DNA of 64,000 bases from positions 96,001 to 160,000 of the forward strand of contig CBDBHR010000026.1 in NCBI GenBank assembly GCA_965205865.1. Direction: 5' to 3'. How positions within the stretch are numbered: the first letter of the stretch is position 1; the number at the start of each line of letters is the position of its first letter. A program made the translations under genes and the position numbers. The stretch is from a bacterium (GTDB lineage: Bacteria > SAR324 > NAC60-12). This document shows, piece after piece, positions 34,828 to 50,000 of the stretch. The notes beneath the pieces were generated by a model. The model was not told the DNA's origin. It worked only from the letters and a program-made list of their open reading frames with translations, and ran no database searches.

Positions 34828-35160
34828 TCAAGCTGGGCGACCATACTGACTGACAAAAGTTATTCCGGATGCCCTTATTCATTCCATTATAAGTCAAAAG
34901 AAGACCTGACCCCTTTGTCTTCAAACCAAAGCACTTAAGAATTTACTAGCGCTGATCACGCGAATATCTTCTTTAAGCGATAAAAAATCAATGTCTTCCT
35001 CTCGTACGACCTGGTAACCGAAAGGGATATTCAACCTACGTTTAAAATATTTCAAAGCAGTCGATATATTTTGACTTTTGCTGTAACTATTTAGGTTTCT
35101 TTAGAGACCCCTTCGATTTAAGCACGGAATTTGCATAGCATAAAATTCAGGAAGGATTTT

Positions 35161-42253: not shown

Positions 42254-43459
42254 GGGGTCAGGCCTTTGATTAAATAATTAAATTGTGTTTTGTTAAATTC
42301 TATGGTTAGCATAGTTCTGGACTTGAGAGCAGCCGAGAGGAAAAATGGCAAGAAAACGAAGAGTTCATTATCCGGGAGCGGTCTATCATGTGATGCTTTG
42401 TGGCAATGGGGGGCAGGACATTTTTTTTGATGATGATGATCGTTTTTATTTTAGAGAGTTACTTTTGGAGGGAGTGGCGCGTTTTGAACATCGTATCCAC
42501 GGGTTTTGTTTTATGGGCAATCATGTTCACTTGGTGGTTCAAGTGGGTGTGATTCCGCTGTCTCGCATTATTCAAAATGCGTCATTTCGTTATACTCGCT
42601 GGATCAACACAAAACAAAAACGGATGGGACATTTGTTTCAGGGGCGCTATAAAGCGATTTTAGTGGATGCCGATCAGTATTTATTAGAGTTAATTCGCTA
42701 TGTTCACCTGAATCCGGTTCGGAACGGGCTCGTCAACGATCCGGAACAATATTTTTGGTCAAGCCATGCCGTGTATACGGGAAAAAGAAAGATGCCTTGG
42801 GTTCATACAGAGTGGGTTCATGCTCAATTTTCCAGGCACTTGGGTCATGCTCGCCGGATGTATCGTCGCTATGTTGAGGAAGCTCAGGAGGACACCCTAC
42901 CCTCCGAGTTCGAAAAAGGGAATAAAGAAGGAAGGATTTTGGGAGGTGATCACTTTGCGGAAAGTGCATTACAACAAGCGGGAGAGCACATTCATCAAAC
43001 ATTGGAGTTGGAAGAAATTATTCAGGCGGTTTGTCAATTGTATCGCATCACTGAAAAGCAACTCATTGCCAAGGGGAAAGAGAGGAAACCCTCTGAAGCA
43101 AGGTCGGTTATTGCCTGGATAGTGCGAGAATCAGAAAATCTAACATTGGAAGCCTGGGGAGAGCGTTGTGGTCGAGATGGCGTCACCTTAAGCAATGCCA
43201 TTCGAATTTTGCTAAAACGCGTCAAAACAGACAAAGATTTGGTAAAGAGGATGAAAGAAATTGAGGAAAAATTATTAATCTCTTTCGGGTCTGACTCGCC
43301 GCAGCCGCTCAGCGTACCGTTGCTGCGTTGAAAAAAAGATAATCCGACAAAATTCTCCGCTCGAGCGAAGCGAAAGTCAAGCCTCAACGAGAGAGCTTGC
43401 TCCGGGATAGTTTACTTAAAGAATGAAACGTCAAATGAAATAATCAAAGGCCTGACCCC
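42254..43459 (+). mobile_element. RAYT element bounded by perfect 19-bp inverted repeats
   Basis: GGGGTCAGGCCTTTGATTA at 42254-42272; its reverse complement at 43441-43459. Confidence 0.8.
42345..43331 (+). CDS. REP-associated tyrosine (HUH/Y1) transposase with DnaA-like C-terminal HTH
   Basis: MARKRR..YHVM, MGNHVHL, GHLFQGRY, YVHLNPVR, YFWSS. Confidence 0.9.
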   Translation: MARKRRVHYPGAVYHVMLCGNGGQDIFFDDDDRFYFRELLLEGVARFEHRIHGFCFMGNHVHLVVQVGVIPLSRIIQNASFRYTRWINTKQKRMGHLFQGRYKAILVDADQYLLELIRYVHLNPVRNGLVNDPEQYFWSSHAVYTGKRKMPWVHTEWVHAQFSRHLGHARRMYRRYVEEAQEDTLPSEFEKGNKEGRILGGDHFAESALQQAGEHIHQTLELEEIIQAVCQLYRITEKQLIAKGKERKPSEARSVIAWIVRESENLTLEAWGERCGRDGVTLSNAIRILLKRVKTDKDLVKRMKEIEEKLLISFGSDSPQPLSVPLLR

Positions 43460-43988
43460 ATTTCTCGCAATTTAGAGGGGAGGCGATCGATTGACGCGTT
43501 TTTTCTAAAAGACGTTCTAATTGTTCTGCATTTTTCGAGCATTTCTTACTGGCAGAGGTTTTCAGCTTCGAACCGTCAAGGTTTATTTCAGCGAAACCGG
43601 AGACCTGCTGATCAATGGCCATTTGAATCAATTGCTCAAAATAGAAGGGCAGGCGTTGCAAATGACGACGACGGAACCGGCTCAAGGCACAGTGGTCGGG
43701 GGTCAGATGCGCTGAAACATAGATATAACAAAGATCGCGTTTACAAAGTTTCTCCAAAACACGACTACTCTCAATGCCTTCACTGTAGGCATAAAACCAG
43801 GTCGCTAACAGAATCGCCGGATCATAGGCATCCCCCCCTTGCGATTTGTAGGAGCCATAAAGCGAGGATAAATCCAAGCGGGAAACGAAATCTACCACAA
43901 AACGGCATTTATCGTTATCCGGGATCAAGTGGTTCAAATCGGTGGTGGATAATTGGAGGGTGGAACGATCATTACTCAGAAAACCCAT
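43460..43988 (-). pseudogene. IS1182-family transposase, 3'-truncated
   Basis: DUF772-like AYDPAILL..YAYSEGIESSR..PDH..SRFR, LDGSK; the frame runs into the RAYT IR. Confidence 0.8.
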
Positions 43989-47937: not shown

Positions 47938-48300
47938 GTGACCACCGGCTAAAGCCGGTGGCTTATTAAGGTGAACGCCTCAAAGGCTATTTATTGGGTC
48001 CCCCCGAGGGGTCCGATTCAGTCTCCCCCAGGTGAAGGTGAGAAAACCCCGGAGGGTTGACAGGACATATCCCAGCCATTTATGGCTGGGATAGGCTACA
48101 AAACGTTTTTAGTCCCAGAGGGACGACACTTTTGCTTCAGTGCGCTTTCAGTGTCGTCCCTCCGGGACTGGATCCACCATAAAAATCGGTCCCCAGCCAT
48201 CAATGGCTGGGCTATGACCTTTCGTCCCTCCGGGACTAAAATATGACCGCTGCGCACGGTCAAACCGATAGGGGTCCCCCACCTGAGGTGGGGGTTTATT
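47938..48300. repeat. Cluster of IS200/605-end-like hairpins and REP doublets
   Basis: ccaccggctaaagccggtgg; cccagccat..atggctggg twice; gtccctccgggac twice with complementary gtcccagagggac; cccccacctgaggtggggg. Confidence 0.65.
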
Positions 48301-48403
48301 CCAATTAATTAATAATTCCCCCGGAAATATGAACTTAAATTCCCAAAGTCACAGTCACCGTAAAGAACTGACTTATAGTGGTTTCCAGCCACCTTTCGTC
48401 ATT

Positions 48404-49045
48404 CCTCCGGTACAGATCCGGACGTGCGCTGCTAACGCATCCGGCTCCTGCTTCGAGTCAGACGCTCAAACGTTGCCGTTTGGCGCACCCTGCTTAAACC
48501 GCTCTCTGATTTTACCGGCCTCTGAGTTCCGAACACAGGAGGGCAAGCAGAATTCCTCTCAGCCAAGTCCCTTTGCTCCACAGGCTCCGTTGATTTCCTT
48601 TGCATTGTTACTCTCTACAAATGATCTCATTGTTCGCCGCTTCATCGCTACTACGAACTTGTCCGACTTCCTGAAGACGTAGATATCGGGGTTATTTATT
48701 AATTTTCCCGATCCGACTACCAATGGAATGTTGACAGTCGTCTTCAGGATCTCCCAGGTTCCGATCAAGAAACTTCCACACATGCACCGGGTCTTCGACT
48801 CCGCCAGGCTCGACCGGGACTCACGCTAACGCCTTCGGTTGATGTTGCCTTCCCCACCAGACTACAAGGTCAGCACCTGAAACTATGATTTCGGAGCTCA
48901 ATACCGAGCCTATGTTCTCCCCTGTCAACGCTTAGCGCCTATCCTTGCGAATAACCACTCATGACTCGGGGACTCGGCGGGTCGTTACTGCCTTACCGAG
49001 TAAGAGACTTTCACTCTCTATTTCTTGCCAGCTTTCCTGGTGCAC
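48404..49045 (-). ncRNA. ORF-less group II intron (IIB-like), domain VI truncated
   Basis: 5' GUGCACCAGG; DI motifs gcgttgacagggg and ggaaggcaac; D5 GAGCCGGAUGCGUUAGCAGCGCACGUCCGGAUC at 48415-48447. Confidence 0.85.
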
Positions 49046-49061
49046 GGCCTGACCCCGATTT

Positions 49062-50000
49062 CTAAGAGAAGGGGTTGAGCAGTCTGGAGAGGAATCCTCG
49101 TTTGCGTTTCACCATCGCGGCGCCGTAACTGCCCTCACCGCCCCGCAGCCGCGGATCGAGCAGGTCCCTGAGGGCATCTCCGAACATGTTGAGGGAGTAG
49201 ACGACCAGCGTGAGGAAAAGCCCCGGCCAGAGTGCCAGCCAGGGCGCGTGCTCCATGAACCGGCGCCCTTCGCGGCTGAGCATCCCTCCCCAGCTGGGAA
49301 TCTTGATGGGCAGCCCGAATCCGAGGAAGCTCAGTGACGCTTCGGCAATGATGACTCCGCCGATGTTGATGGAGAAGATGATGATGATCGGTGCCATGAT
49401 ATTGGGCAGTACATGGCGGATGAGGACTTGGGGCGTGGGGGTGCCCACGGCCCGGGCGGCCAGAAAATAGTCATTCTCTTTGATACCGATCACGGCACCC
49501 CGGACGACTCGGGAGCCCCCGATGCCGCCGGCGATCCCCAGGACCACGATGATCTGGAGGAGCCCCTGCCCCACGACCGACATGATCGTCAACAAGAGCA
49601 GCAGCCCCGGAAACGCCATCCAGGCATCAACAAATCTTTGCACCGCCAGGTCCAGTTTACCTCCAAGGAATCCGGAGGTGCCCCCGATCAGGAGTGCAAC
49701 GGCCACATTGAGTGCAGTCGTGGCCAGGCCCACCACTAAGGAAATACGAGCCCCGAAGATCAGGCGGCTCAGGAGGTCTCTTCCCAACTGGTCGGTCCCC
49801 AGCAGATGCTGGAAGGATGCGCCCTGCAGCCGATCTCCCAAGTTTAGTTTATCATAGGGATACGGGGTCAACACATCCGCAAAGAGCGCCACAAAAATCA
49901 AGAGCAGGATGATCATCCCGCAGAACGACCCCAGCGGCTTCTCCTTGAGAAGCCGGATGAAGAAATCCGCAAACCGGCCCCGTCGTTTGGATTCACTCAT
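49062..50000 (-). CDS. Peptide ABC permease DppC-like
   Basis: Close paralog of 40157 and 57372. Confidence 0.92.
   Translation of the reverse strand: MSESKRRGRFADFFIRLLKEKPLGSFCGMIILLLIFVALFADVLTPYPYDKLNLGDRLQGASFQHLLGTDQLGRDLLSRLIFGARISLVVGLATTALNVAVALLIGGTSGFLGGKLDLAVQRFVDAWMAFPGLLLLLTIMSVVGQGLLQIIVVLGIAGGIGGSRVVRGAVIGIKENDYFLAARAVGTPTPQVLIRHVLPNIMAPIIIIFSINIGGVIIAEASLSFLGFGLPIKIPSWGGMLSREGRRFMEHAPWLALWPGLFLTLVVYSLNMFGDALRDLLDPRLRGGEGSYGAAMVKRKRGFLSRLLNPFS

Follow-up and report, generated by a model that had tools for sequence, protein, structure and literature searches.

The window analysed here, a 64,000-nt stretch of contig CBDBHR010000026.1 from a bacterium of the SAR324 lineage (assembly GCA_965205865.1, positions 96,001 to 160,000 of the forward strand), contains a 692-nt group II intron without an open reading frame (ORF), inserted directly behind the outer tip of a transposon end repeat. 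The tip is an 11-nt motif common to the inverted ends of several families of Y1 (HUH) transposons, and 36 of the 41 intron 5' junctions found in the genome follow it with at most one mismatch. It is likely, in our judgement, that the ORF-less intron arose from a parent bearing a reverse transcriptase (RT) and came to occupy these transposon tips by reverse splicing guided by its exon-binding site 1 (EBS1). The intron, its parts and its flanking exons lie in the window as follows; D1 denotes domain 1, IBS1 intron-binding site 1 and MFE minimum free energy.

48354..49045, minus strand: ORF-less group II intron of 692 nt, 5' GUGCAC ... GGUGAC 3', with boundaries from the genomic junction alignment.
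49046..49056, minus strand: end of the 5' exon, GGGGTCAGGCC, the outer tip of a transposon end repeat; its terminal 6 nt, CAGGCC, are IBS1.
48312..48353, minus strand: 3' exon, the inner part of a sister-family end repeat (TGTGACTTTGGGAATTTAAG...), from genomic paralogs.
48789..49011, minus strand: domain 1 core, Rfam RF02005 group-II-D1D4-6, 164.1 bits, E 1.7e-47, full model 1-225.
48858..48863, minus strand: EBS1, AGUCUG, in the 9-nt loop of a D1 hairpin, from the Rfam model and homolog alignment.
48475..48605, minus strand: RT gene remnant in domain 4, with the start codon at 48605-48603, the first 42 codons and the deletion junction at 48475.
48415..48447, minus strand: predicted domain 5-like hairpin, from the MFE fold of the terminal 99 nt.
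48354..48414, minus strand: predicted extended domain 6 with a single bulged A at 48361, from the MFE fold; the 3' end is kept in 37 copies.

The window element is a group II intron. The RF02005 score compares with a cut-off of 49 bits, and the D1 consensus fold built from 15 homologs has compensatory changes in 58 of its 78 pairs. Its limits come from an alignment of copies in the same genome, with 41 5' junctions and 37 3' ends: across the 5' junction the minus strand reads ...AAATCGGGGTCAGGCC on the exon side and GTGCACCAGG on the intron side (over a longer stretch, ...TAGAAATCGGGGTCAGGCC and GTGCACCAGGAAAGC...), the intron starts with GTGCAC, and its 3' terminus is ...CGGTGAC at 48354. Genome-wide, 37 of the 41 copies begin GTGCGCC, and every aligned 3' end is ...GGTGAC or a near variant. 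The original prediction, made from the window alone, had called a group II intron of about 640 nt without an RT ORF and had placed its 3' end at 48404; the identification is upheld by the Rfam scan and the missing RT ORF by the sequence of domain 4 (below), but the length is 692 nt, since the 37 aligned 3' ends put the terminus 50 nt further on, and 48404 lies inside domain 6. The terminal 99 nt are predicted to fold at -38.4 kcal/mol (z -3.3) into a D5-like hairpin and a long D6, in which the bulged A at 48361, 8 nt from the 3' end, is a candidate branch point. A literature search by Rfam model name returned no paper tying RF02005 to an RT class, and the intron class is therefore not assigned. 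Near the 5' end, intron positions 6-22 (window 49040-49024) include a 5' CCAGG that can pair with a nearby CUGG in a local hairpin or with a distal CCUGG at about position 300 (window ~48750), closing domain 1; both partners covary in relatives, and a switch between alternative pairings is possible.

A search of the 4.74-Mb genome (30 contigs) with the window intron stretch as query gave 50 matches and, by BLAST, 69 segments; 41 5' junctions were counted, and the window intron is 96-100% identical to its sister copies. Four copies measure 1957 nt, one 2039 nt (with a broken frame), 16 between 689 and 703 nt, one 720 nt and three 1599-1606 nt; seven others are shorter, rearranged or disrupted, among them one of 3897 nt that borrows the 3' end of its neighbour, and the remaining nine of the 41 have no 3' end within 4.5 kb. 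The four 1957-nt copies are the RT-encoding parents for which the original prediction proposed to look. Each has an open frame of 473-477 codons (470 aa counted from the ATG) for an RT/maturase that carries a YADD motif and scores 127 bits with RVT_1 and 344 bits with TIGR04416 (cut-off 300); its best match in the PDB is the RT of a IIC intron, 7uim (E 7.8e-45). The protein terminates 36 residues past the TIGR04416 match, and RVT_1 is its sole match in Pfam, so that an endonuclease domain would not fit.

The window copy is a non-autonomous deletion derivative of these parents. It retains 42 RT codons followed by a frame-shifted tail, and the difference between its 692 nt and the parental 1957 nt corresponds to a deletion of 1265 nt. 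The deletion junction, GCCAAACGGC joined to AACGTTTGAGC, is common to 13 copies at different sites, including the one in the window. Three copies have a second deletion allele (702-703 nt), and a single copy has a third (720 nt). Identity among the 16 ORF-less copies is 96.8-99.9%.

Domain 4 of the ORF-less intron has itself received insertions. A 906-nt insert at one position there, 100% identical in four copies (G000:C30:1206305-1207210 at locus L031, and three more), is a nested intron with a weak match to RF02003 (33 bits) and a D1-like 5' part, and in two more copies that position is taken by other inserts, of ~834 and 901 nt. There is also a head-to-tail pair of introns (G000:C26:239009-239711 and 239712 onward, locus L033) in which ...GGTGAC runs directly into GTGCGCC with no exon between.

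The target of these insertions is well defined. Within the window, GGGGTCAGGCC occurs exactly three times, at the end of the intron's 5' exon (49046-49056, minus strand) and at the two outer ends of an intron-free transposon (42254-42264, plus strand; 43449-43459, minus strand), an identity that had been predicted; with one mismatch there are six occurrences against 1.33 expected, a number reached in 0 of 100 shuffles, and these include the variant that had been noted at 34903 (34903-34913, minus strand). Genome-wide, GGGGTCAGGCY has 138 exact sites (61 GGGGTCAGGCC and 77 GGGGTCAGGCT) in 4.74 Mb, as against the ~4 calculated from base composition. The shorter form GGGTCAGGCY has 164 sites, and an intron 5' end stands directly after 27 of them; nine further 5' junctions are preceded by a one-mismatch form, which together makes up the 36 of 41 and agrees with the proposal that the intron homes into a dispersed repeat associated with a HUH transposase.

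We found that GGGGTCAGGCY is the conserved outer tip of the inverted ends of several Y1 families and of their gene-less miniature derivatives. The motif heads the inverted ends of elements of 50-85, 78, 365, 1046 and 1204 nt, and the end families, with letters that are labels of this analysis, are these.

Family A: end GGGGTCAGGCCTTTGATTA..., elements of 1204 nt and 78 nt.
Family B: end ...TTGCAAGTTTGCAAA, element of 365 nt.
Family C: end ...TTGAAAGTTTGAAAC, element of 1046 nt.
Family D: end ...TTGCATACTTGTATT, elements of 50-85 nt.
Family E: end ...TTCGTTATTTCG.
Family F: end ...CTGTGACTTTGGGA.

The outer 10-11 nt alone are common to the families; the inner parts differ, and a short direct sub-repeat is common in them. 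In families A and C the encoded proteins have 328-330 aa, with a Y1_Tnp (IS200-like HUH) domain and a DnaA_C-type helix-turn-helix (HTH), and families E and F keep remnants of such genes. The 3' exon is readable in 32 intron copies and continues into one of these ends in 25, with 13 in family A, four in D, three in C (one of them belonging to the copy that borrows its neighbour's 3' end), two each in E and F, and one in B. One of the remaining 3' exons abuts another intron and six are other sequence, with the exact tip upstream in three of the six; two sites without a recognisable end repeat still hold GGGA-(C/T)AGG. The window intron is itself a family F insertion. Its tip and 3' exon sequence occur together, uninterrupted, at three other genomic places and in a TGCGACTT variant at two more, and an intron-less paralog of the site (C30:860414-860211) is 95% identical over 204 nt of 3' flank and has an uninterrupted tip.

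The intron-free transposon in the window belongs to family A and resembles the repetitive extragenic palindrome (REP)-associated tyrosine transposase (RAYT) systems.

42254..43459, plus strand: RAYT-like Y1 transposon of 1206 nt, with 19-nt inverted ends (GGGGTCAGGCCTTTGATTA) at 42254-42272 and 43441-43459 and an ORF at 42345-43331.

Its 328-aa product matches PF01797 Y1_Tnp at 46.8 bits (cut-off 23) and, in an extra C-terminal HTH of the DnaA_C type, PF08299 at 34.9 bits; inspection of the DNA by eye gave candidate HUH and Tyr motifs (HVH, YVHLNP). The same 19-nt inverted ends also bound the 78-nt gene-less elements. RAYTs are by criterion single-copy, domesticated genes, and this genome has ~12 near-full-length Y1 transposase paralogs and many fragments; the window ORF scores 65.6 bits with the NCBIfam RAYT model NF047646, under its cut-off of 80. 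Because the transposase is multi-copy and falls below that cut-off, "RAYT-like Y1 transposon" is the safer name. These elements have a RAYT-like architecture, with a Y1 gene between inverted repeats and gene-less derivatives resembling REP doublets forming hairpins (REPINs), and are multi-copy in the manner of an active insertion sequence (IS). The original prediction of an insertion at a RAYT terminal motif is accordingly right about a Y1/HUH end-repeat tip, but the end is that of a sister family, since family F shares only the outer 11 nt with the RAYT-like element in the window, and the RAYT name is not sustained. Six of the ~12 near-full-length Y1 genes (on contigs C23, C29 and C30) have an intron 70-180 nt upstream of the start codon in the same orientation, and only one right-end insertion, antisense to a gene remnant, was seen (C25:251985); this pattern, in small numbers, suggests either selection for co-transcription or a strand preference.

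Pairing between EBS1 and the exon bears on how the tip is recognised. The loop AGUCUG at 48858-48863 had been proposed as EBS1 on the basis of pairing with CAGGCC at five of six positions, one G-U pair included; both its placement in the D1 loop and its covariation with the exon in relatives support this. We collected 37 related loci from other genomes through their RTs (47-86% identity) and read the EBS1 columns from a D1 alignment. Among 18 distinct combinations of EBS1 and 5' exon, 13 pair at 6/6 positions, four at 5/6 and one, from a truncated copy, at 1/6, whereas swapped combinations reach 6/6 in 16 of 292. The covarying pairs include TGTCTG/CAGGCA, TGGGTG/CACCCA, TGAGCG/CGCTCA, CGCCTG/CAGGCG, AGAGCG/CGCTCT and AGCTTG/CAAGCT, among others. 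Because the same six columns change with the exon in relatives, we regard the position of EBS1 in the window intron as settled on comparative grounds. Within the SAR324 genome, EBS1 reads GGTCTG in 22 copies, AGTCTG in 11 and otherwise in two, and the 35 readable copies pair with their own exons at 6/6 positions in 28 cases, 5/6 in five, 4/6 in one and 2/6 in one (a tandem copy). GGUCUG can pair with both CAGGCC and CAGGCU and AGUCUG with CAGGCU only, so that the window EBS1 pairs at 5/6 with its own exon and would pair at 6/6 with CAGGCU; no clear sorting of the variants by last exon base was found in these copies (AGUCUG 7 T/4 C; GGUCUG 13 T/9 C). With the tip in 36 of 41 5' exons and full pairing in 28 of 35 copies, most copies in this genome have neither an unrelated 5' exon nor a non-complementary EBS1, the outcomes that the original prediction named as adverse to it.

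The course of events that we consider likely begins with a 1265-nt deletion in a 1957-nt parent, which would have removed nearly all of the RT/maturase gene and left the ORF-less form. The EBS1 loop of the family (GGUCUG, or AGUCUG in the window copy) pairs with CAGGCY, the terminal six bases of GGGGTCAGGCY, and would direct reverse splicing to that point. RT from the intact parents presumably binds the ORF-less RNAs and mobilises them in trans; lacking an endonuclease, it would prime from DNA of the replication fork. Every new copy of a transposon or miniature element would supply two fresh homing sites. The window copy would have entered the tip of a family F end, and a G5 to A change at its 5' splice site would have arisen later. 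The 13 copies that share the deletion allele are spread over five or more end families, occupy either arm of the 78-nt element and are flanked outside the tip by unrelated sequence. Retrohoming by means of parental RT is consistent with the retained 5' part of the RT gene, with the presence of four intact parents and with the good match of EBS1 to the exons. The predicted non-autonomy is thus seen in the derivation from RT-bearing parents, while mobilisation in trans is a step that we infer from a deletion allele shared at many sites, by analogy with Thermosynechococcus elongatus.

A number of observations, set out in this and the following three paragraphs, weigh against this account. The first concerns the exon upstream of IBS1. 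Fixing EBS1 and EBS2 had both been suggested as checks, and only the former succeeded: a scan of the whole of D1 for complements of exon positions -12 to -7 identified no EBS2, and a comparison of one large internal loop with exon positions -14 to -7 in 15 homologs gave no support (3.17 for own against 2.87 for swapped exons). Two relatives have 6-bp internal-loop matches to the exon, though the overall score is no better than the control. A conserved CCCC beside GAGUC was also considered as EBS2 and rejected, being paired inside D1. The G-run at -11 to -8 may be conserved merely as part of the transposon tip; recognition by the RT and a non-canonical contact were considered as other readers. 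The failed EBS2 search leaves room for a mode of targeting that depends chiefly on DNA structure or on protein and in which EBS1 does no more than fine-tune the site: the inverted ends, which are able to fold back, would form a hairpin in single-stranded DNA at the fork, as for class C introns, and the RT both has no endonuclease domain and finds its best solved relative in a IIC intron. We consider this unlikely, because EBS1 pairs over a full 6 bp in strict covariation with the exon, the intron is located inside the 5' arm of the repeat and not after a hairpin, the ends of gene-bearing elements are more than 1 kb apart, and the two sites without an end repeat keep GGGA-(C/T)AGG.

A second set of observations concerns duplication of DNA. 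The copies at C28:358767 and C29:409363 have a common 5' flank, copies cluster at 322-359 kb on C28 and at 717-735 kb on C29, and DNA-level duplication may account for part of the copy number. One may go further and postulate that the copies multiplied mainly as DNA, through composites of the intron with Y1 or miniature elements or through segmental duplication, and not by retrohoming of ORF-less RNA; recurrent composite units of 770-781 nt (the 78-nt element plus intron) and the four nested-intron composites with their identical 906-nt insert would be accommodated as readily as the clusters. This is nevertheless quite unlikely given that a single deletion allele occupies so many end families and both 78-nt arms with nothing related beyond the 11-nt tip, and that full-length copies, two deletion alleles and the nested form all occur at the same type of site, which implies many separate insertions. 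That the 11-mer is simply the intron's preferred IBS by chance, with no real transposon link, is almost certainly wrong and already contradicted by the site census: the window site and the window RAYT-like element do have just 11 nt in common, but there are 138 exact sites where ~4 are expected, inverted pairs of the motif bound elements of fixed length that encode Y1 transposases, 25 of 32 3' exons run into known end families, and the same arrangement recurs in three other genomes.

Retrohoming guided by EBS1 remains the reading that we prefer, and the next points to be set against it concern the window copy and its evidence of activity. This copy begins GUGCA in place of GUGCG; the G5 to A change, at 49041, is unique among the 41 copies and is the one private change among eight positions that differ from the consensus of the 16 ORF-less copies. 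The copy also has an A.C mismatch at EBS1/IBS1 position -1. Given these two defects at the splice site it may be inactive, and it is possibly best described, from its sequence, as a group II member by descent that is impaired in splicing. More generally, four of the 11 AGUCUG copies stand at C-ending sites with which they cannot pair fully, the window copy and the tandem copy among them, the latter located after another intron and not at a tip. The D5-D6 model RF00029 has no match in the window at its gathering threshold and reaches 31-31.6 bits, against a cut-off of 40, on the same segment of sister copies. Finally, when contigs from three RNA-library runs and one other run were compared with 48154-49256, no RNA-run contig joined the exons, and contigs cannot show transcription; run X1 has two contigs from which the intron is missing and which have 18-25 extra letters, and their source is probably paralogous intron-less sites.

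The last points of this kind come from the related loci. A Y1-like gene is present in the 3' flank of only four of the 37, two of the three Thiodiazotropha copies adjoin other genes, and in many relatives the target is an unrelated sequence, CGCTCA or CGTTAA for example. Pfam searches with the ORFs after locus L055 and with the 353-aa ORF of L042 gave no match, a RAYT-like query had no match in genome G003, and the left end of L042 is single-copy in its genome. Because Y1 flanks are few and unrelated targets many, we take the association with transposon ends, on the sequences compared, to belong to one sub-lineage of the relatives.

Where the association does occur, it extends well beyond SAR324. 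In the metagenome-assembled genome (MAG) G005, whose partial RT is 86% identical, the 3' exon of the intron enters a miniature element of the family C type with ...GCCTGACCCC at its end, and the same tip also bounds Y1 genes there. A Planctomycetaceae MAG (RT 61-63% identical) has an intron with EBS1 CGCCTG between GGGGGACAGGCG and CGCTTAT...; the uninterrupted site occurs 11 times against 0 for a control pattern, and one of the 11 belongs to an element of 481 nt that has inverted ends and contains a Y1-like remnant. The Psychrobium site (RT 52-53%) reads GGGACAGGCA followed by AAAATTTCTC..., and one copy precedes a broken Y1-like gene (PF01797 19.7 bits, below the cut-off; tblastn 4.8e-6). 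Intron-free left ends with the tip were read at eight of 12 fetched Psychrobium loci (L109, L110, L112-L115, L118, L119), a count in which three minus-strand loci came reversed and were left unread; L111 comes after an intron 3' end. In a deltaproteobacterial MAG (L066), a Y1_Tnp ORF (31 bits) begins ~45 nt past the 3' splice site. At some loci (L038, L039, L055, L097 (Planctomycetaceae MAG), L041, L045, L057) the introns start GAAAGCG or GAUAGCG and not GUGCG, a boundary that an intron-free copy of the same element confirms for the planctomycete.

We tentatively suggest, with somewhat more doubt than conviction, that these introns form a cross-phylum, endonuclease-less lineage specialised as a hyperparasite of one Y1 (RAYT-like) superfamily, always inserted ~11 nt inside the tip. 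EBS1 would track the tip as it changes, from CAGGCY here to CAGGCG in the planctomycete and CAGGCA in Psychrobium, and the spread of transposons and miniatures would supply homing sites and perhaps a vehicle between genomes. If this is true, the intron may also inactivate the transposon or regulate it by separating the tip from the remainder of the end, and the association would bear on how Y1/REP-type elements are held in check; it would be a clean natural case of co-evolution between a retroelement and a DNA transposon, with retargeting legible in six RNA bases.

The immediate surroundings of the intron contain further repeats and mobile-element remnants. An ABC permease gene of the OppC type has its stop codon 5 bases upstream of the insertion site. 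At 48192-48237 on the plus strand there is a match to Acido-Lenti-1 (RF01687, 52 bits), with an inverted partner near 48060-48130; the model has 47 matches genome-wide, 43 above the cut-off, often as inverted pairs or tandem arrays ~70-75 nt apart, and the window copy lies inside a 160-200-nt repeat unit present at seven places. This Rfam "sRNA" motif therefore behaves here like a REP-type dispersed repeat and not like a single-copy RNA gene; the published description of Acido-Lenti-1 reportedly mentions an unexplained nearness to group II introns. A further mobile-element remnant abuts the RAYT-like element: on the minus strand at 43431-43988, an ORF of 185 aa with a DUF772 transposase domain (42.6 bits) has its start within the element's right inverted end.

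Group II introns are few in most bacteria, and by what route they reach high copy number is a standing question. In this genome one short motif accounts for most of 41 copies, and the supply of targets grows with the host transposon. Class C (IIC) introns insert after terminator or attC stem-loops, using an EBS1 of 3-4 nt and a DNA hairpin upstream; the intron described here resembles them in its small RT without an endonuclease domain and in its dispersed, repeated targets outside genes, but it has a covarying EBS1 of 6 nt and a site inside a repeat arm. RmInt1 of Sinorhizobium meliloti is likewise an endonuclease-less group II intron of high copy number, and its natural homing site is in ISRm2011-2, where the target lies inside the body of a DDE-type IS, in contrast to the tip of an inverted Y1/HUH end; to our knowledge, RmInt1 has given rise to no ORF-less burst of this size.

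The closest system is that of the TeI3/TeI4 introns of T. elongatus, with 28 copies in one genome, ORF-less copies that are deletion products of an ORF-containing intron and whose mobilisation by the RTs of sister copies was inferred, and a preference for other mobile DNA that includes nesting in introns and three F4 introns at a conserved site in ISEL1, of the IS200 family (Mohr, Ghanem and Lambowitz 2010, PMC2882425). The two cases have in common a multi-copy family (41 junctions here), ORF-less deletion derivatives, mobile-DNA targets and nesting. They differ in that here a single target, the outer end-repeat tip of several Y1 families and their miniatures, takes most copies, that this type of target is kept in other phyla, that the RT has no endonuclease domain, and that no thermophily is involved.

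Two other associations of ribozymes with such elements are relevant. In Pseudomonas putida KT2440 a group II intron was found beside REP sequences, with only two of nine copies REP-associated (Tobes and Pareja 2006, PMC1525189), compared with 36 of 41 5' junctions at the tip (at most one mismatch) here. IStrons are chimeras of a group I intron and an IS200/IS605-type transposon (PMC4227781). The likeness lies in a ribozyme physically joined to a Y1-type transposon. IStrons are moved as DNA by the transposase and spliced as one unit, whereas the intron here is a retroelement in its own right that enters the end of the transposon.

Apart from the three ISEL1 insertions in T. elongatus and the two of nine copies in P. 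putida, our literature search, which covered parts of the main texts, found no description of an intron lineage homing to REP/RAYT or Y1 transposon ends. The 692-nt ribozyme with a small separate RT is, in addition, a candidate two-part gene-targeting tool. Trans-mobilised ORF-less introns, nesting and a preference for mobile DNA are already known from T. elongatus; what is new is the nature of the site, a tip shared by Y1 transposons, its yield of 36 of 41 junctions, and its conservation in distant bacteria together with a matching EBS1.

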